Origin: Candidatus Bathyarchaeota archaeon
Lineage (GTDB): Archaea; Thermoproteota; Bathyarchaeia; TCS64
Assembly (NCBI GenBank): GCA_043826455.1
Contig: JBDRQD010000005.1
Coordinates: 1 to 15,435 of the forward strand
Length of the DNA: 15,435 nt
Direction of reading: 5' to 3'
Of the stretch, positions 1 through 6,130 are shown piece after piece. The position numbers were made by a program, and so were the translations under genes. Position 1 is the first letter of the stretch; every line of letters starts with the position of its first letter. Under the pieces are notes generated by a model that saw nothing but the letters and a program-made list of their open reading frames with translations, did no database searches and was not told the DNA's origin.

Positions 1-480
1 TTTAATTCTATCTCTTTTTTCAGAATATATAAAATAATCGTCGGTTAATTGATGTAAGAGATCTAAATAAGTTTCAATGTTATTTTGGATATTTTTTATA
101 ATACTTTCTCTTAAATTCCTTTTAATGAATGGTCCACTTAACCAGATTCCATAAGTAAAAATCTCTTTTTTATTAATGCCAAATTGAAATTGAACTCCCT
201 TTCGAGGATCATCAAATTTACTATGTGCTAGTCCGAGCCACATATGATCACGATAACTGCCGTCATCTATTCGTGGACTCCACGGTCGAGCAACATATGG
301 TGATTTATTTTTTGTTTGTAGAACCTGAAATTCTTGTGGAAGAGACGCTAGGAGCTCTGGTACTAATTGATTTTTAAATTTATCAGCAACCAATTTTATA
401 TGGTTCACCGTTTTAGATTTTCGACAGGAATCAAAATCCTGTTGTGTTAGTTTGAATAGAGTGTTTTGTATGCTTACCAT
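1..480 (-). CDS. Partial AT-rich gene (N-terminal 160 aa; runs off the left edge); resembles DUF2461/DUF1054/McrB-N-like DNA-binding domains, possibly restriction/defence-associated
   Basis: Not in the ORF track because it has no stop in the window. Hand translation from ATG (CAT at 478-480) is open for 160 codons: MVSIQNTLFKLTQQDFDSCRK...PYVARPWSPRIDDGSYRDHMWLGLAHSKFDDPRKGVQFQFGINKKEIFTYGIWLSG... An AT-rich TATA-like tract lies at ~494-512. The family call is by resemblance only. Confidence 0.75.
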   Translation of the reverse strand, partial: MVSIQNTLFKLTQQDFDSCRKSKTVNHIKLVADKFKNQLVPELLASLPQEFQVLQTKNKSPYVARPWSPRIDDGSYRDHMWLGLAHSKFDDPRKGVQFQFGINKKEIFTYGIWLSGPFIKRNLRESIIKNIQNNIETYLDLLHQLTDDYFIYSEKRDRIK

Positions 481-668
481 GAAGTATCTTCATTTTTATA
501 TCATAATAAAATTTGCTACGTGCGATTCAATAATATCCTCTTTATACGAACAGATATCAGAGGGTCAAAATGTCTCACCAGGAATAAAAACCGAGGTGCT
601 TTTCAATGCCATACCTAATAATCTAATGAACCCTGCATATTTGAATACTCAGAGATCCATTGGGAGGT

Positions 669-830
669 ATGCACGATAGGAGTCAAAGGGAGATCAGGAT
701 GACGGCTACTCTAGTCAGCAAGGACAGAGGGGCAAGCTGGCAGATCGTCAAGGTTACCGGGTTAGGCGGAACCGAGAGAGTGAGGCCCACAGACTTTGAG
801 GGAATGAAGCTCGTGAGGATGGAGTACTGA
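669..830 (+). CDS. Small hypothetical protein (53 aa) with an Asp-box-like motif
   Basis: ATG 669 to TGA 828-830: MHDRSQREIRMTATLVSKDRGASWQIVKVTGLGGTERVRPTDFEGMKLVRMEY. It is a purine-rich, higher-GC patch in AT-rich surroundings, with GGGAGGT immediately upstream. Below the ORF-track size cut-off. Confidence 0.5.
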   Translation: MHDRSQREIRMTATLVSKDRGASWQIVKVTGLGGTERVRPTDFEGMKLVRMEY

Positions 831-967
831 TACCTAATTATGTTTTTAGAGGGTTATTATTGACTCTGTCCAGGTATGAAAACTCCGCGCGCTTACAAAT
901 GCTTTTGACCAACATCCCAATGCCAATGGTTATTTAGCTCTTTTAGAACAGAGCCATGATACCCTTT

Positions 968-1636
968 TTAATTGATTACTTTACTAAAAACCGTTAATCT
1001 ATCTTTCTCGATCCAAGGATATTCAGTTATTCGGCCACCCACTTTAACCCAAATCCTATCATCATCTGCATCATACATTTCGCAAAAAGCGGTACCATGA
1101 ACCATTTTCGATGTCTGAGCAGGAGCATTGCCAAGACCGACAAGGAATCCACGTTGATCGCCTCTTCTCCAGGAAAGTTCAAGATCAATTACGCTTTCAT
1201 ATTCGCCATTCGTTACCAGCTTCACATATACCTCCATGATCACCCCGTACCCTACATCAATCTCAACAGTCGTTTCATCTAAACCATAATTTCCAGCATC
1301 CAACGTGAATTGCACTTCTCTGCTGAAATTTGATAGACTATAAACACCTGATTTGTTCAGTAACAACGCATATGAAAGTTTAAACTCTTCAAATTCCGTT
1401 GATAACTCTTCATATTGGTTTTCCATCTCACCTATAATCTGTTTGTACTAGTATTCAGTAAGATAAACCCGACGCACAATCTCATCTTCATATACCTGTC
1501 TCTCCAGTTCAAATGAAGCAACTTCAGACTCGAGTACACTTACTTGGTCCTTGAGATCGGATATATTGGATGAATTGAGGTAATTACTCGCAAGAACACC
1601 TGAAAGCCCACCGACGAGAAGACCTAAACTTATCAA
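968..1636 (-). pseudogene. Membrane-anchored coiled-coil/extracellular beta-domain protein interrupted by an in-frame TAG (1448-1450)
   Basis: Track ORFs 1448..1636 and 968..1426 are in the same frame, separated by TAG plus 7 sense codons (...LTEY*YKQIIGEMENQYEEL...). An N-terminal hydrophobic helix (LISLGLLVGGLSGVLA) is followed by a heptad pattern that continues across the stop. Confidence 0.6.
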
Positions 1637-1980
1637 AAGTACAGTCTTTTTAACAGGTAATACTAAATGAATTTCTCATAATATAAAATGCGTACACTGC
1701 ATAGTATCCAGGTTTCAGAGCTAGATCCCACGGAGCGGGAATTGAACATTAATTTAATATTCGGTATTACTGAAAATTTCGGTTTTAACCCAAAATTAAA
1801 CATTGTCATAAATACGATACATTGATTCCTTCAGCGGAAAAGTCAGAACATGAACGCCAATAAAATACATAAACACACATAATCCGGATCTTCACGCAAG
1901 CTTCAAAGGGTAACCTAAAGGAACCCCAGGTGAAAACTAGGGGAAACGCGCCTATTAACTCGGAAACCCACAAAACACAC

Positions 1981-2127
1981 GTGAAGACCAGGACCAGGCT
2001 CAGCGTCAGCCTCAGCGACCAACTCATCCAAGAGATCGACCAACGCAGAGGCCTGGCCAAACGATCCACCTACGTGGAGCACCTTATAAGAAGAGGCCTA
2101 GAAACCAGCACAGACAAGAAGCAGTGA
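1981..2127 (+). CDS. Ribbon-helix-helix (CopG/Arc/MetJ-like) DNA-binding protein, 48 aa
   Basis: MKTRTRLSVSLSDQLIQEIDQRRGLAKRSTYVEHLIRRGL has the beta-strand (RLSVSL), helix, RS-capped helix pattern of RHH proteins. A TATA-like CTATTAAC at 1952-1959, ~25 nt upstream of GTG 1981, favours this leaderless start over 1930. Confidence 0.8.
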   Translation: MKTRTRLSVSLSDQLIQEIDQRRGLAKRSTYVEHLIRRGLETSTDKKQ

Positions 2128-2150
2128 AACTAACCTGCGTGAATACTTAT

Positions 2151-2187
2151 TAGTACCCCCACCCCTACTAAGTAGGGGTACCCCTAC
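2151..2187. repeat. 37-bp palindromic direct repeat, left copy (abuts the ATPase ATG)
   Basis: TAGTACCCCCACCCCTACTAAGTAGGGGTACCCCTAC is followed directly by ATG at 2188. It contains the ACCCCTAC-TAA-GTAGGGGT inverted repeat and the perfect 16-bp palindrome GTAGGGGTACCCCTAC. Confidence 0.97.
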
Positions 2188-3282
2188 ATGTACTTTGATC
2201 CGCTGCCTAAGAAAAACCTGAAAGACCTCTTTAACCGCAAAGAAGAACTAGACAAGTTCTCCAAGGCACTAAGCTACTCGTCTCTAATAGTGATAATTGG
2301 GCTGCGAAGGACAGGTAAAACCTCTTTCATGAATGTAGCGTTATCAGAGTCAGACCAACCATACATCACGCTTGATCTAAGAAGCCTATCCTTCAACCCG
2401 TCACAAGCAGACATAATAAAAAAAACCGAGTCAGCCTTCAACAACCTTAACAAGAGATGGCTGTCAAACATCATAGATGCGTTGAGGCAGGTTAAAGGAG
2501 TAAGCATTCTCGGTAACTCCGTTTCTCTTGACTGGAGCAATAAAGGAATAGATCTCCCCGATCTATTCGACAACGTAAACAGGTGGTCTGAAGAAAACAA
2601 CAAGAGATTCCTTCTGGCGTTTGACGAGATCCAGGTCATTCGCGGCGAAAAAAGCATACCACGGTTATTCGCTCACGTCATAGACTACAATCAAAACATC
2701 TGCCTAGTCGTAACAGGGTCCGAGATGGGACTGCTGTTTGATTTCCTGGGATTCGATGACCCTGATTCCCCTCTGTACGGCAGACATTACACAGAGATCA
2801 GGATGCACAATTTCGACGCCGAAGAGTCGATGGAGTATCTTCGAGTAGGGTTCAAGCAACTGGGGCTCTCTCCAAATGAAAACGTGTTAAAGTACGCTGT
2901 CGATAATTTAGACGGGAACGTGGGGTGGCTTACACTCTTCGGTACACGGTGTAGAGACGAAAACGACGCAAGCACAGGGATCGTAGATAGCGTCGTGATG
3001 GAGGGAGGAAAACTCTCAAGGAATGAGGCACTCAAGCTGGTGAATTATTCTCCTAGATACGCAGTGGTTATGAATCACCTTGCGAGAGTCGGAAGAGCAA
3101 GCTGGAGCCAAGTAAAATCCATACTAGAGGCGCATGAGAGCCGAAGCTTACCGAACTCAACCGTCTCCGATATATTAAACAAACTTGTGAAAACCAGTCT
3201 CGTTGAAAAAAACGAAGAATACGGTATACCGGACCCTCTGATGGTTAGTGGAATTCTAGAAAACCCTCTACCGGAGAACTAG
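2188..3282 (+). CDS. Archaeal AAA+/STAND-like ATPase (COG1672/ATPase_2 type) with C-terminal winged-helix domain
   Basis: Shows MYFDPLPK..DLFNRKEEL at the start, Walker A GLRRTGKT, Walker B LLAFDEIQ, VVTGSE, SPLYGR and GNVGWL. The C-terminus is wHTH-like (SWSQVK...STVSDILNKLVKTSLVEK...YGIPDPL). No PD-(D/E)XK nuclease tail is seen. Confidence 0.9.
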   Translation: MYFDPLPKKNLKDLFNRKEELDKFSKALSYSSLIVIIGLRRTGKTSFMNVALSESDQPYITLDLRSLSFNPSQADIIKKTESAFNNLNKRWLSNIIDALRQVKGVSILGNSVSLDWSNKGIDLPDLFDNVNRWSEENNKRFLLAFDEIQVIRGEKSIPRLFAHVIDYNQNICLVVTGSEMGLLFDFLGFDDPDSPLYGRHYTEIRMHNFDAEESMEYLRVGFKQLGLSPNENVLKYAVDNLDGNVGWLTLFGTRCRDENDASTGIVDSVVMEGGKLSRNEALKLVNYSPRYAVVMNHLARVGRASWSQVKSILEAHESRSLPNSTVSDILNKLVKTSLVEKNEEYGIPDPLMVSGILENPLPEN

Positions 3283-3316
3283 TACCCCCACCCCTACCAA
3301 GTAGGGGTACCCCTAC
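3280..3316. repeat. 37-bp palindromic direct repeat, right copy (first 3 nt are the ATPase TAG stop)
   Basis: TAGTACCCCCACCCCTACCAAGTAGGGGTACCCCTAC is 36/37 identical to 2151-2187. The single T>C difference lies in the 3-nt hairpin loop. Confidence 0.97.
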
Positions 3317-3338
3317 TAATTGGCGGCTGTACACGCCC

Positions 3339-3542
3339 CTAACCTTTGCCCCGCCTCCCCGATCCCAGGTCCTTCATCTTAAGGTCCCTCTCCAGAACCA
3401 CATCATAGTAAGCCAGCAATCCATGGGCCACGGCCTCCCTCACACTACACGCCACACCCCTCCTCAGAAGCTCCCTCAACACCCACGCGGGCTCCCCAGT
3501 CAAAACACACTTGACGTACACCCGGGGCTGCTCCTCATCCAA
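3339..3542 (-). CDS. Small RHH-like/antitoxin-like DNA-binding protein, 67 aa
   Basis: From TTG 3542: MDEEQPRVYVKCVLTGEPAWVLRELLRRGVACSVREAVAHGLLAYYD..., a beta-strand, helix, RG..S..EAV helix pattern typical of archaeal RHH (Arc/MetJ) proteins. GGGGGG upstream is a possible SD. The track's N-terminal extension to 3620 looks non-coding. Confidence 0.6.
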   Translation of the reverse strand: MDEEQPRVYVKCVLTGEPAWVLRELLRRGVACSVREAVAHGLLAYYDVVLERDLKMKDLGSGRRGKG

Positions 3543-3743
3543 GCCACAGCCCCCCAACCACAACACATAGAGGGGGCACCCTGGAACACCAGTCAAAACC
3601 GGTCGGCGAAACGGGGTCACCCCGGAAGCCCACGCCCATCACCCCGGAGGAGGCCCACCTCATCAGCTAAACGATGAACAGCGCCACACCTTTAAAGCAA
3701 TATGAAGCTTAGGTAACTACTGAGAGTAGAGAAAGTGTGACAC

Positions 3744-3987
3744 CTAATCACCTGGATACTTGCCCTCGTCTCTCCTACGCTCCCCGCGAAGCTCCCATAC
3801 AAGCCTCTTAGGGTCAAGCCCCCCGACCACGGCCCTGTCCAGCAGCTCCGGGCGCTTTGCCCGGCCCTCTATCAGATACCTTATAGCATCGTTGTAGTCG
3901 ACCCTGCGCCCCAGCCTGAGCTGTAGCTCGGCAGATATCCTCAGGAGACCGTCCCATACATCGTCTTCACTTGTGATGTGTGGTCAT
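3744..3987 (-). pseudogene. Frameshifted VapB-type antitoxin-like gene (orphan)
   Basis: ATG (CAT 3985-3987) reads MTTHHK* in its own frame. After a 1-nt shift it reads ITSEDDVWDGLLRISAELQLRLGRRVDYNDAIRYLIEGRAKRPELLDRAVVGGLDPKRLVWELRGERRRDEGKYPGD* (TAG 3744-3746). The span is 244 nt = 81 codons + 1. The MTTI...ELQ.RLGRRVDYNDAI and ELR.ERRRDE pattern resembles archaeal VapB-type antitoxins. Confidence 0.7.
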
Positions 3988-4037
3988 CGGTAGACTCGAC
4001 CGACAACACCAAAAACACGAGGTACACATCAATACCC

Positions 4038-4505
4038 ATGACCATCCAAGCCACCCTATGCCAGATTATAAACAATGGCAGGCTCCTCCTGCTCAGAAAG
4101 GACCCGGGTCTTTTTGGGGAGGGCAAGTGGAACGGGGCGGGGGGCAAGCTGCTGTCTGGGGAGAGCCCCGAGGAAGGCGTCGTCAGGGAGGTCCGTGAGG
4201 AGACCGGCCTGGAGCTCAGGTCTGTCACCCATCACGGGGTCCTGGACTTTTACTTCGGTGAGAAGCCTGAGTCTGACTGGGTGGTTCACATCTTCAGCAG
4301 CAGTGATTTCAGCGGTGAGCCCAACGAGGTCTCGGAGGAGGGTGTGCTCCGCTGGTTCAGGTTCGAGAACATCCCCTACGACAGGATGTGGCAGGACGAC
4401 GAGCACTGGCTTCCTCTACTCCTGGAAGGCAAGCGGTTCAGGGGCTGGTTTCTCTTCACCGAGGACGGGGGCAAGCTGCTCAGCCACCAGCTGACCGTCC
4501 AGTAA
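4038..4505 (+). CDS. Nudix hydrolase, MTH1/8-oxo-dGTP diphosphatase-like
   Basis: Complete Nudix box GKLLSGESPEEGVVREVREETGL, plus the MTH1-type motifs GEGKWNGAGGK and IPYDRMWQDDEHW. The start is placed at ATG 4038 (MTIQATLC), where the domain begins. Confidence 0.92.
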   Translation: MTIQATLCQIINNGRLLLLRKDPGLFGEGKWNGAGGKLLSGESPEEGVVREVREETGLELRSVTHHGVLDFYFGEKPESDWVVHIFSSSDFSGEPNEVSEEGVLRWFRFENIPYDRMWQDDEHWLPLLLEGKRFRGWFLFTEDGGKLLSHQLTVQ

Positions 4506-4546: not shown

Positions 4547-4810
4547 ATGCCCTACATATTGAAGGAGGACCGGCCCAGGTACGACGAGACCCTGGACGCG
4601 CTCATAGAGAAGCTCAAGGAGAGGCCCGTGGAGAACGTGGACGGAGACATAAACTACTGTGTCACCCGGATACTGAAGGAGGTTTACCCCCTCCGCTACT
4701 TCCACATCAACCGAGCCATGGGGGTCCTGTCCTGCATCCAGCACGAGTTCTACCGCCGCGTCGCGGCCCCCTACGAGGACACCAAGATAGAGCAGAACGG
4801 GGACGTCTAG
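4547..4810 (+). CDS. Conserved small all-alpha protein, DUF6899-like
   Basis: The MPYI...R...GDINY.VT...Y..IN.AMGVLSC..HEFYRR...PYEDTKIEQNGDV signature matches a small family I recall from phage and prokaryotic nucleotide-metabolism loci (family name from memory). Strong SD and high-GC3 codon usage. Confidence 0.85.
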   Translation: MPYILKEDRPRYDETLDALIEKLKERPVENVDGDINYCVTRILKEVYPLRYFHINRAMGVLSCIQHEFYRRVAAPYEDTKIEQNGDV

Positions 4811-4972: not shown

Positions 4973-6130
4973 ATGTCGACGCAGAAAAGGGTCATTATAT
5001 GCACGGGGGCCCCCGGCAACGGCCGCGACGAGATGCTACAGCAGCTGAGGGAGAAGGCCCACTTCGGCTACCACCACCTCTTCAGGTACATAGTTGAGGA
5101 GGCCAGGCTGGACGGCACAAACCTCAGCAAGATCAACATCCTGGACTTCTACGACAGCCAGCCGGAGAAGATGGAGCAGCTCAGGAAGCGCGCCATCCAG
5201 AAGATCGTCCAAGAGATCAACAAGGCCGGGGGCGTCCACATCGTCAGCACCCCCATCCACTTCGAGTGGAAGGGCAACAGGTTCCAGGGCCTCCTAGAGG
5301 ACGAGGCCAGGCAGCTGAACCCCGACATGTTCATCATAGTATTCGACGACTTCGTCCGCGTCCGCCGCCGCCTCCTGGAGGACGCCCAGTGGCAGGGCCA
5401 CAAGTACACCCTGGGGGAAATAGCCAACTGGAGGCGCGAGGAGGTGAACGGCGTCTACAGGCTGGCCGAGGCCTTCACGCCCCGCCGGGAGATACAGCTG
5501 GTGGCCTACGAGAACGGCCCGGACATCCTGCGGGACCTGGTGTATAAGCCGAGCAAGGAGACGGTGTACCTGAGCCACCCCATCACGGGGGAGGGCCCAG
5601 AGTTCTTCAAACAGATAAACAAGTTTCTGGATAGCCTCAAGGAGTACTACGTCGTATACGACCCCTACCTCATCAAGGACTGGGACATCGTGGAGCAGTG
5701 GAGGGACGCCGTCAACGAGACCATCGACGCTGACGGCGAGCTGCCTGAGACCTTCACCTTCAGGATGACCTACAAGGAGGGGCCCATGGAGGAGGAGTTC
5801 GACATCCGGGAGGTGGAGACGGCCATCAAGAACCTCAGGTTCCAGATCATCGACAGCGACTACAAGATCATCGAGAACAGCGACATGACGGTGGTCTACC
5901 ATCCCCGGAAGAGCATATCGGCGGGCGTCATGTGCGAGATGGTGTACGCCAAGGCCCTGGCCAAGCTGGTTTACGCGTACTACCCCTACGAGCCGAGCCC
6001 CTTCTTCGAGTGGTACGCCACCCGCATCTTCACGGACCCCGACGAGATGAGGGACTTCCTCATCAAGGAGTCGAAGATGACAGGGCAGAGGCCCCTCGAC
6101 TTCTTCAGCCAGCCCCCTGCGAGAGATTGA
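4973..6130 (+). CDS. Fusion of an archaeal AdkA-like nucleoside monophosphate kinase domain and a nucleoside 2-deoxyribosyltransferase/nucleotide N-hydrolase (NDT/Rcl/MilB fold) domain
   Basis: The N-terminal half has RVIICTGAPGNGRD (variant P-loop) and IVSTPIHF...FQGL...LNPDMFIIV, resembling AdkA (IVDTH...PGLP..L.PD.I). The C-terminal half has VYLSHPITG, VYDPY, DSDYKIIENSDMTVVY and SAGVMCEMVYA (NDT catalytic-Glu motif). A TATA TTTATTAA lies at 4913-4920. Confidence 0.75.
   Translation: MSTQKRVIICTGAPGNGRDEMLQQLREKAHFGYHHLFRYIVEEARLDGTNLSKINILDFYDSQPEKMEQLRKRAIQKIVQEINKAGGVHIVSTPIHFEWKGNRFQGLLEDEARQLNPDMFIIVFDDFVRVRRRLLEDAQWQGHKYTLGEIANWRREEVNGVYRLAEAFTPRREIQLVAYENGPDILRDLVYKPSKETVYLSHPITGEGPEFFKQINKFLDSLKEYYVVYDPYLIKDWDIVEQWRDAVNETIDADGELPETFTFRMTYKEGPMEEEFDIREVETAIKNLRFQIIDSDYKIIENSDMTVVYHPRKSISAGVMCEMVYAKALAKLVYAYYPYEPSPFFEWYATRIFTDPDEMRDFLIKESKMTGQRPLDFFSQPPARD

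Follow-up and report, generated by a model that had tools for sequence, protein, structure and literature searches.

Several described systems combine genes with repeated or palindromic DNA sites. Orc1/Cdc6 proteins bind repeated ORB boxes near their own gene, and the lac, gal and deo repressors act on promoter-overlapping operators together with auxiliary operators that allow looping. Integron cassettes hold a single ORF closely enclosed by imperfect palindromes that resemble each other (attC), while the IS200/IS605 elements and their palindrome-associated derivatives carry similar, like-oriented subterminal hairpins at either end. Long direct repeats flank certain restriction-modification units, which are said to have been described by Furuta, Abe and Kobayashi in 2010. 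The locus analysed here shares some features with each of these systems. It lies in a 15,435-nt stretch of Candidatus Bathyarchaeota archaeon contig JBDRQD010000005.1 (the whole stretch analysed, here the window), and its features are as follows.

1930..2127, + strand: left neighbour, a small RHH-like gene with weak NikR-N (RHH) and PHROG repressor matches, outside the unit
2146..2155, + strand: TATA-like A/T box CTTATTAGTA, overlapping the 5' edge of the left site; presumed ATPase promoter element
2151..2187, + strand: left site, two boxes and a 3-nt spacer, between the TATA-like box and the ATG
2153-2168, + strand: left box 1, GTACCCCCACCCCTAC, first box of the left site
2169-2171, + strand: left spacer TAA, separating the left boxes
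2172-2187, + strand: left box 2, GTAGGGGTACCCCTAC, a perfect 16-bp palindrome touching the ATG
2188..3282, + strand: ATPase gene, 364 aa, with AAA+ P-loop domain, helical lid and C-terminal winged helix
3280..3316, + strand: right site, a direct repeat of the left site that opens with the TAG stop
3282-3297, + strand: right box 1, first box of the right site
3298-3300, + strand: right spacer CAA, separating the right boxes
3301-3316, + strand: right box 2, second box of the right site
3339..3620, - strand: right neighbour, a convergent small ORF with no family match, outside the unit

A repeat search located the two 37-nt direct repeats at 2151-2187 and 3280-3316 (97% identity, one mismatch, spacing 1129), in agreement with the initial annotation, which had described an ATPase ORF enclosed by 37-bp repeats at its ATG and TAG. 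The ATG at 2188 directly follows the left repeat, which ends at 2187, and the stop codon TAG (3280-3282) forms the opening three bases of the right one. Each site is composed of two 16-bp boxes, 19 bp apart, with the structure GTA-(G/C-rich 10-mer)-TAC. The chance expectation for the 26-nt core with <=3 mismatches was 0.00 (200 shuffles), and in the entire 2.95-Mb assembly the 37-mer with <=8 substitutions occurred only twice, at the two copies already proposed, while a reversed-pattern control gave 0 matches in the same genome; a chance origin of the repeats was thus ruled out. An assembly artefact was also ruled out. In an independent assembly of run X1 the left copy was spanned by a contig covering 1500-2735 and the right copy by one covering 2756-4000, both with unique sequence on either side and with no excess of depth (10.1 and 10.6), and the site-ORF-site layout was seen again in further assemblies. 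Neither of the reservations attached to the initial annotation, a one-off duplication or an artefact of assembly, was borne out, given the presence of the layout across orthologues and the contigs that cross each copy into unique flanks.

Two small genes flank the unit. The 1930..2127 gene also adjoins it in loci G000, L091 and L116, and adjoins a one-site allele in L088; the 3339..3620 region is ~80% conserved in L088, L091, L107 and L116. They had been described as two convergent RHH genes, which has some backing for the left one, with its weak RHH matches, but not for the right one, which has no family match. The 3339-3620 ORF is RHH-like by eye only. Among the RNA runs listed, none contained the ATPase gene, and two from the same study as X1 had almost nothing of the stretch; in one of these two, X9, a lone 182-nt contig was found over 3384-3565 (~94%).

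The ORF between the sites has 46% GC and encodes a protein with Walker A (GLRRTGKTS) and Walker B (AFDEIQ) motifs that are invariant in the alignment. It matched PF01637 ATPase_2 (8.5e-15; 55.6 bits against a cut-off of 33.2), and a profile search detected an MCM_C-like winged helix at residues 288-343, in accordance with the AAA ATPase-wHTH protein read from the sequence initially. Full-length similarity to PDB 2FNA (1.7e-68, residues 1-352) and PDB 2QEN (9.3e-65) places it in the 2FNA/2QEN type of archaeal ATPases, for which structures have been solved; to our knowledge, these proteins have no assigned function, and none was found in the parts of the literature on PF01637/COG1672 and DUF234 ATPases that were available. 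A Foldseek search with a predicted model of medium confidence (pLDDT 71.9) returned 2FNA and 2QEN on top, followed by archaeal Orc1/Cdc6 and then by STAND proteins; the Orc1/Cdc6 structures that came nearest after the protein's own family were bound to origin DNA. The other Pfam matches were weak ones to AAA_16/AAA_22, and none placed the protein in the Orc1/Cdc6 family. No match to PF03008 (DUF234) was obtained; the C-terminus is a winged helix, which sets the protein apart from COG1672 ATPases with DUF234, a domain listed as a PD-(D/E)XK-like nuclease fold in the portion of PMC3424549 that was available. The gene is the single PF01637 member in the genome, contrary to the lineage-specific expansions from which the initial annotation had argued. 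PADLOC gave weak matches only, to the candidate systems PDC-S01 and PDC-S27, and a defence role is not claimed.

The left site was found at the same position in every orthologue examined (54-84% amino acid identity), behind a TATA-like box and 0 to 2 nt from the start codon (4 in L056). At all orthologue loci an A/T-rich element (TTTAT, TTGAT or CTTAT) lies immediately 5' of the TAG of the site; it is the presumed promoter element of the ATPase. Most orthologues also have a copy or a palindromic variant of the site at the stop codon, as do 16/20 full-length metagenome loci; in L080, L128 and L150 the right copy has the lineage's own sequence, which in L150 is a 40-nt repeat that again begins at the TAG stop. 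The right copy is decayed or absent in G002, G005, G012, L044, L050, L084, L090, L106 and L112, and is therefore dispensable in those lineages. In the closest clade (7 loci, 21 pairs), the mean pairwise difference at the 34 non-spacer positions was 0.8% for the left site and 6.4% for the right site, compared with 37.5% at four-fold degenerate sites, some of the conservation figures being taken from loci retrieved via an exact match to the left core. Judged by these differences, both copies are under purifying selection in the window's closest clade. The spacer triplets vary freely and those of the left and right sites are unequal in 7/7 of these loci, which argues against recent gene conversion. 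The selection on both copies and the presence of the left site in all orthologues support the initial view that the repeats are functional rather than a one-off.

Two boxes are also characteristic of more distant homologues (30-65% identity to the query). Among 18 such loci in Bathyarchaeia, two tandem boxes were found in the same place in 16 and a single box in one. The box sequences are lineage-specific in 17/18 loci (for example, GTATCAGGGGTGATAC twice, ACTTAAGGGGGTTAAGT twice and CTGGTGGTACCACCAGT twice), and within a locus one box hardly differs from the other. Of the factors linked to these sites, the ATPase alone is lineage-specific, and because the boxes change with the protein lineage, the ATPase's own winged helix is the most likely predicted reader of the site; this co-variation lends weight to the binding by the protein's own wHTH that had been suggested initially. 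In three further Thermoproteota genomes, canonical PF01637 genes stand in tandem arrays, with the Walker A GPEGCGK[ST] and overlapping stop and start codons; they were unmatched by the orthologue profile, and no two-box sites were found at them. The two-box rule is thus confined to the subfamily sampled in Bathyarchaeia and does not extend to all PF01637 proteins.

Our preferred explanation, to which we give somewhat better than even chances, is a single-gene module that regulates itself through an operator at each end and in which the repeats cause precise loss of the gene. Such a module would be self-contained, made up of promoter, operator, ORF and second operator. We infer that the C-terminal winged helix binds the boxes, probably as an oligomer of the Orc1/Cdc6-like AAA+ protein, and ATPase bound at the left site would repress or gate its own transcription. 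The right copy would be a second binding site, which might help to form a loop, mark the 3' boundary or act as a roadblock. Two properties expected of an operator were found: the dyad site overlaps or directly follows the predicted core promoter of its own gene, and its sequence co-varies with the candidate regulator. A two-operator autoregulatory unit had been offered initially as the alternative to a mobile cassette, and the TATA-site-start arrangement and the purifying selection make it the better fit. Since the copies are direct repeats, recombination between them would remove exactly the ORF and leave one site. The module is an accessory one and has changed chromosomal position many times in Bathyarchaeia over long timescales.

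The likeness to autoregulated repressors lies in the dyad operator between TATA-like box and start codon, in the near-identical second predicted operator ~1.1 kb away, and in the absence of sites elsewhere in the genome. Where those systems use a small transcription factor, however, the candidate regulator here is an AAA+ ATPase; the second predicted operator opens with the stop codon itself, and the unit taken together is an accessory gene that relocates. The predicted model resembles Orc1/Cdc6 in its succession of AAA+ domain, lid and winged helix, and here too repeated G-rich dyad boxes adjoin the gene of the presumed binder. In contrast to the Orc1/Cdc6-ORB system, the protein is of the PF01637 (2FNA/2QEN) type, it is the ORF, rather than an AT-rich unwinding region, that lies between the boxes, and there is no sign of replication. 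Two observations are left unexplained by autoregulation: homology between contexts ends within a few bases of the unit edges, and independent lineages have the same site placed precisely on the stop codon.

In four contexts, alleles were identified that have a single site and are syntenic with occupied loci to the left and right of it. In context A, which includes the window's own locus, L088 carries a lone site between the two small neighbour genes, where G000, L091 and L116 are occupied, and thereby provides the empty allele that the initial annotation had predicted. In context B, G045 has one site and G003 and G004 are occupied; in context C, the one-site alleles are G024, L087 and L115 and the occupied ones G002, G012, G020, G043 and G046; and in context F, one-site L105 compares with occupied L108. 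Three of the one-site alleles were compared (L088, G045 and G024), and in each the TATA-like box has degenerated, as expected once the gene is lost. Altogether ~10 distinct solo-site loci were found, and in 32 congeners the site occurs beside the ATPase or where the ATPase was lost, and nowhere else. The unit occupies >20 contexts among ~35 distinct loci.

These alleles, together with direct repeats exactly at the gene boundaries, would also be produced by a dedicated mobile cassette, the reading that the initial annotation had put first and that we consider possible but not probable. Its sites would recombine through a recombinase, or with the ATPase as specificity factor for a host enzyme, and a 1129-bp circle of ORF plus one site would re-integrate at solo or secondary sites. 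In its favour, homology between contexts reaches no further than 41-53 nt upstream of the start codon and 0-4 or 31-40 nt downstream of the stop, and L090 and L106 are 91.5% identical over the unit alone (-47 to +3). Locus L108 has the order site-ORF-site-5' remnant of another ATPase gene, its right copy being followed by decayed first codons (ATGTACTTT...), and L105 has a site with the same 5' remnant, as though a fresh copy had inserted at a defunct copy's site. The occurrence of site-ORF-site in separate lineages, each with its own site sequence, and the selection on the right copy point in the same direction.

Ordinary homologous recombination at 37-bp repeats, however, yields identical one-site alleles, and no recombinase is linked to the unit. 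As the initial annotation had stated, there is none in the window, which a profile search confirmed, and in G017 and G002, where the unit lies on long contigs, none adjoins it; the six tyrosine recombinases (PF00589) and the one Y1 transposase of the genome are all on other contigs, and no CCCCTAC/GTAGGGG was found within ~2-3 kb of that only Y1 gene. A shared trans-acting recombinase is not compatible with a site that changes with the ATPase lineage. Tyrosine-recombinase cores have overlaps of 6-8 nt, longer than the 3-nt central spacer, and comparison of the spacer triplets of solo sites with those of left and right copies gave no consistent crossover position. Some relocated units (L090 and L106) are without any right copy, remnants with truncations or internal deletions occur roughly as often as clean solo sites, and ORF and flanks diverge similarly within a context, which indicates slow turnover. 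The protein had no match in plasmids or phages at E <= 1e-8 and the site had 0 exact matches in viral contigs. The circle junctions proposed as a check were not seen, nor were deletion joints, among the assembled contigs of X1, X2, X3 and X9, a weak test because contigs drop rare variants. At the variable spot of context C, no comparable palindromes bracketing other DNA were found in 8 genomes; this region is too variable for a clean comparison with a naive site-free target. Of the cassette as first proposed, the empty alleles and the many contexts hold, whereas a dedicated mechanism of site-specific recombination found no support.

Like an integron cassette, the unit has a single ORF set closely between similar, imperfectly palindromic sites, it has empty alleles with one site, and it could conceivably form a circle of ORF plus one site. 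Unlike integron cassettes, it has no integron integrase and no attI, and the 37-mer is without any GTT or AAC triplet, so that the R''/R' cores RYYYAAC and GTTRRRY cannot be present, in line with the lack of attC features remarked on initially. The 37-nt site is also shorter than attC and, located 5' of its ORF, bears the presumed promoter and changes in step with the protein that the unit encodes. No arrays of the unit were seen, the nearest being L108 with its unit and dead remnant. With the restriction-modification units it shares a selfish appearance, direct-repeat flanks, a one-repeat empty allele and varied contexts; their repeat, however, comes from the target and differs between insertions, whereas here it is the unit's own and is the same in all contexts. 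The similar hairpins in the same orientation recall IS200/IS605, but the unit has no TnpA or TnpB, the genome's Y1 gene is elsewhere, and the empty alleles keep a full site, which IS200/IS605 excision would not leave.

A rather unlikely further reading is that of a new kind of minimal mobile element, in which the AAA+/winged-helix protein would pair its own two-box ends and drive excision and re-entry of a circle of ORF plus site. Excision would use host recombination or an unlinked nuclease, and in the circle the site would supply both stop codon and promoter. The circle would re-enter at solo sites, which would be landing pads, or at new places, and the lineage-specific boxes would act as a specificity code.

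It appears improbable that the sites function at the RNA level, with a 5' hairpin controlling translation at the start codon and a 3' one, past the stop, affecting stability or termination. The central 8-bp hairpin folds as RNA at -13.4 and -15.8 kcal/mol and its loop triplet varies freely, and in G020 a palindromic right-site variant reaches -30.8 kcal/mol (z = -4.8); for the two sites of the window itself, however, the z-scores are weak (-1.6 and -2.5). G005 has one compensatory pair change in this hairpin (CCCATAC/GTATGGG) and L056 a T-G pair, which is G-U-compatible. Both changes would be compatible with an RNA hairpin or a single-strand one, too. Conservation, however, covers all 34 non-spacer positions and not only the 16 of the stem; L053 and L055, where box 1 was replaced, lost the central hairpin but retain two boxes; and the two direct boxes of distant homologues require no stem between them. 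Transcription from a start inferred ~25 nt past the TATA-like box would, moreover, leave box 1 untranscribed.

We find it improbable that the right copy is a by-product of tandem duplication, that is, the functionless promoter and operator of a lost second gene copy. The decayed ATPase codons behind the right copy of L108 are what such an origin would leave, and right copies decay in many lineages, but in the window's clade the right copy changes about six times more slowly than four-fold sites, contexts A and B have no remnant of a second gene after it, and it begins exactly at the stop codon in separate lineages. An initiator-origin pair, in which the Orc1/Cdc6-like ATPase and its boxes would form a minimal replicator and possibly a small circle, is very improbable: the predicted model does have Orc1/Cdc6 on origin DNA as nearest folds after its own family and the boxes are G-string palindromes beside the gene, like ORB elements, but the boxes do not enclose any AT-rich unwinding element, neither small circular contigs nor excess depth (10.1 and 10.6 in X1) nor any plasmid or viral relative was found, and the family is PF01637.

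No description of the site-ORF-site arrangement was found in the available parts of the literature on archaeal ATPases, Bathyarchaeia mobile elements and integrons. For an orphan ATPase family, the locus provides a concrete and testable candidate DNA ligand, one that tracks the protein lineage. The comparative series of occupied loci, one-site alleles and remnants documents gene loss via 37-nt repeats in uncultured archaea, and the sharply bounded, one-gene unit that it defines has been at >20 positions on the chromosome. If the ATPase itself promotes its relocation, it would represent a new type of mobile element without a recognisable recombinase.

The ATPase gene of the window is bracketed by two direct copies of a 37-nt site, at 2151-2187 and 3280-3316, which in a repeat search of the window differed by 1 mismatch and were spaced 1129 bp apart. 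The ATG at 2188 follows directly on the last base of the left copy (2187), and the right copy opens with the TAG stop of the ORF (3280-3282), confirming the tight fit described in the initial annotation. The features of the region are the following.

1930-2127, plus strand: small RHH-like gene
2146-2155: A/T-rich element CTTATTAGTA, immediately upstream of the site
2151-2187: left copy of the site, with TA as its first two bases
2153-2168: box 1, GTACCCCCACCCCTAC, separated from box 2 by a 3-nt spacer
2172-2187: box 2, GTAGGGGTACCCCTAC, a perfect palindrome
2188-3282, plus strand: ATPase gene
3280-3316: right copy of the site
3339-3620, minus strand: small ORF
3978-4505: NUDIX gene
4547-4810: DUF6899 gene, next to the NUDIX gene
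4973-6130: AAA_17/nucleoside deoxyribosyltransferase-like gene, next to the NUDIX gene

The distance from box 1 to box 2 is 19 bp. The 26-nt core of the site had 0.00 expected occurrences in 200 shuffles, and a search of the entire assembly (81 contigs, 2.95 Mb, GC 57.8%; the window comprises all of contig C5) with up to 8 substitutions found the 37-mer only in these two places. An assembly artefact, considered earlier, is contradicted by contigs of the independently assembled run X1, which cross both copies with unique sequence on either side of each, and by the same architecture in many other assemblies.

The 364-aa product matches ATPase_2 (PF01637), with a C-terminal winged helix matching the MCM_C model, and is encoded by the genome's sole PF01637 gene. 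A profile from 11 orthologues gave full-length matches to PDB entries 2FNA and 2QEN, and both also ranked first in a fold search with a medium-confidence model (pLDDT 71.9). A domain search found no DUF234 in the product, a domain listed as PD-(D/E)XK-like in longer COG1672 proteins (PMC3424549).

Orthologues were found by protein search in 8 of the 24 congeners drawn, and the site core by pattern search in 13 of the 32 genomes of the genus, the window's own (G000) included; the hosts of related contigs are Bathyarchaeia. The site layout is conserved within the gene family. All orthologue loci examined (54-84% amino acid identity) carry the left site, preceded by TTTAT, TTGAT or CTTAT and placed 0-2 nt from the start codon in nearly all of them (4 nt in L056). 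The state of the stop codon in genomes (G) and loci (L) was as follows.

Direct-repeat copy: G000, G003, G004 and the remnant in G013; also L080 (54% identity)
Perfect palindromic variant: G020, with box 1 and its inverse, GTACCCCCACCCCTAC ATG GTAGGGGTGGGGTAC
Deleted or degenerate palindromic variant: G046, G043, G017, L053, L054 and L056
Right copy decayed or absent: G002, G005, G012, L044 and L050

The right end of 20 full-length metagenome loci was a direct-repeat copy in 11, a palindromic variant in 5 and neither in 4, counts that include duplicate contigs (9, 4 and 4 when distinct). Similar paired repeats at homologous genes thus recur in many other assemblies, contrary to a one-off duplication.

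A 38%-identical homologue, used as query against 301 genomes of the class, recovered the ATPase family in 34. Two tandem boxes were present at 16 of 18 further homologue loci, with one box at another and an unclear case at a pseudogene. These boxes occupy the same position, with an A/T box before and the start codon after them. Their sequences are lineage-specific (for example GTATCAGGGGTGATAC, AGTATGGGTGGGGATAC, CTGGTGGTACCACCAGT, GTTAGGGGGGTAACT and ACTTAAGGGGGTTAAGT, each occurring twice), and the two within a locus nearly match each other. In L150, the locus's own two-box site is repeated at the stop codon, again with TAG as its start. The two-box rule fails for PF01637 as a whole: in other Thermoproteota (L189, L190 and L191, from G422, G350 and G459), with up to 13 canonical genes per genome, many genes are packed in same-strand arrays where stop codons overlap start codons; they have a different Walker A (GPEGCGK[ST]) and no boxes upstream, as seen in three tandem arrays.

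L149 (G207:C1) carries a further two-box site, ACTTAAGGAGGTTAAGT ACTAAACCGGGTTAAGC, approximately 95 nt past its ATPase stop and outside its own degenerate right site. These boxes are those of another ATPase subfamily (L156/L157 type), and no ATPase gene follows them; they may represent a second subfamily's solo site beside a resident unit, or an insertion hot spot.

The winged-helix ATPase is the sole lineage-specific factor always linked to the boxes, and would bind its own flanks, with the left site as a putative operator over the ATPase promoter. The best-supported reading, which we consider somewhat more probable than the others combined, is a one-gene, autoregulated module flanked on either side by an operator copy.

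The unit of site and gene, with or without a second site, was found at about 35 distinct loci; besides the chromosomal contexts named A, B, C, D (G017), E (G005) and F there are over a dozen more. Two conserved genes that are adjacent in G007 border a variable spot in context C. Homology between contexts starts 41-53 nt before the start codon, and stops 31-40 nt past the stop codon if both loci carry the right site but 0-4 nt past it if at least one is without a usable right copy. In the most recent relocation case, L090 and L106 share 91.5% identity from -47 to +3 only, with different flanks and no right copy in either. Comparison of divergence within a context gave 92.1% versus 91.3% and 85.2% versus 85.1% for ORF and flanks; as both diverge alike, relocation is rare relative to speciation. 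The outer edge of the right site is the exact position of indels in G004 (1277 bp) and in L113 and G013 (~100 nt). The 1277-bp segment directly follows the right site in G004, L099 and L118 and is absent in G003 and G045; in G004 (L030, contig C184, ~2907-4183) it holds an opine-dehydrogenase-like gene, named by eye.

The empty-site alleles predicted in the initial annotation exist in four contexts, including the window's own locus.

Context A (window): occupied in G000, L091, L116 and also L107; one-site in L088
Context B: occupied in G003, G004, L099, L118 and L101; one-site in G045
Context C: occupied in G002, G012, G020, G043, G046 and L120; one-site in G024, L087 and L115
Context F: occupied in L108; one-site in L105

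L088 aligns to window positions 1903-2187 and then directly to 3278-3745, with one site alone separating the small genes on either side. The TATA-like box has degraded in the one-site alleles of contexts A, B and C (GCTCAC for GCTTAT; GTTTAT lost; ATGGAT for ATTGAT), the G045 site has 2 changes that break the dyad, and in context C a one-site genome is nested among occupied relatives. The box decay and this nesting indicate that one-site alleles are scars of loss by inter-repeat recombination. At the sequence level, comparison shows precise gene loss through the repeats in four contexts, with products that would be compatible with general homologous recombination or a dedicated activity alike. 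The L108/L105 pair resembles the entry of a live copy into a dead copy's site, or its duplication there.

Among 44 metagenome contigs with the exact core, the ATPase lay directly behind the site in 22 (3 cut by the contig end, 1 broken), and on the opposite strand behind a symmetric site in 2; the site stood behind the ATPase or its 3' remnant in 2, the first 46 codons alone remained in 2, and 16 had no profile match. Inspection by eye of these 16 showed 3-20 first codons in 4 (L103, L105, L111 and L126), a degenerate 3' end in L123, 10 clean solo sites (7 distinct loci) and one contig, L104, that could not be judged. Two more solos (L073, L075) came from GTDB contigs, along with an internal deletion (L072) and a 3' remnant (L074). 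By these counts, imprecise decay is about as frequent as precise loss.

In L037 (G013:C2), and also L117, only ATPase codons ~294-304 to 364 survive, with the right site; in G013 the remnant is preceded by, and fused to, a 157-bp duplicate from the NUDIX gene's 5' part, with the full NUDIX gene 90 bp further. A 151-nt freshwater-sediment metagenome contig (run X3, record 8) with the site (2 mismatches) and unrelated flanks on both sides is probably another solo site.

The initial annotation had proposed a mobile cassette, with a two-operator unit as its alternative. The empty alleles and the many contexts would fit a dedicated cassette mechanism in which the ATPase might serve as end-binding specificity factor, but no recombinase is linked to the unit: ORF searches agreed that the window has none, and none was found among the neighbors in long contigs of G017 and G002, which are ordinary metabolic genes. 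The six tyrosine recombinases and single Y1 transposase of the window's genome are all on other contigs. We regard this mechanism as unlikely, though the strongest competitor of the autoregulated module.

The other readings are lesser rivals. Hairpins acting at the RNA level appear distinctly improbable. Box 1 pairs through its right half with the left half of box 2 in an 8-bp hairpin, and the palindromic right site of G020 folds at -30.8 kcal/mol (z = -4.8); the central hairpin is modest as RNA (-13.4 and -15.8 kcal/mol; z = -1.6 and -2.5) and reaches -7.1 kcal/mol as DNA. Box orientation is inverted between lineages (L053, L100, L112), which fits protein-binding boxes better than a fixed hairpin. 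In 21 pairs from 7 loci of the window's own clade, the mean difference at 34 non-spacer positions was 0.8% for the left copy and 6.4% for the right, versus 37.5% at four-fold degenerate ORF sites, with the caveat that 4 of the 7 loci had been picked up by exact matching to one copy's core. Constraint therefore extends over the entire length of both copies, beyond the hairpin stem. That the right copy is a functionless leftover of tandem duplication, as its decay in some loci might suggest, is slightly less credible still given this constraint. Spacer triplets vary freely, and left differs from right in 7/7 clade loci; recent gene conversion across the site seems unlikely. An initiator-origin pair is very improbable, even with archaeal Orc1/Cdc6 bound to origin DNA next in the fold search, followed by ORC subunits and STAND proteins such as Apaf-1.

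Window positions 1-2146, at the contig end, are of low GC (31-49% versus a genome mean of 57.8%) and may be foreign DNA; the shift to ~58-60% coincides with the right site. Positions 1-2146 and 3322-3763 had no match in a DNA search of the other 31 genomes of the genus. The minus-strand ORFs at 1-480, 968-1426 and 1448-1636 had no meaningful match in Pfam, NCBIfam, PHROGs or PADLOC, the sole match of the last (Csn2, E 0.008) being at chance level. The NUDIX region is partly duplicated in G008 and G013. A 208-nt contig of metatranscriptome run X9, from the study of X1, maps to 3384-3565 (~94% identity) over the convergent small ORF, and the ATPase gene was covered by none of the RNA contigs compared with the window.

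No description of the bracketed-ATPase arrangement was found in the literature searched. The autoregulated module remains the better supported reading; a dedicated cassette mechanism, if true, would make the unit a mobile element of a new type.
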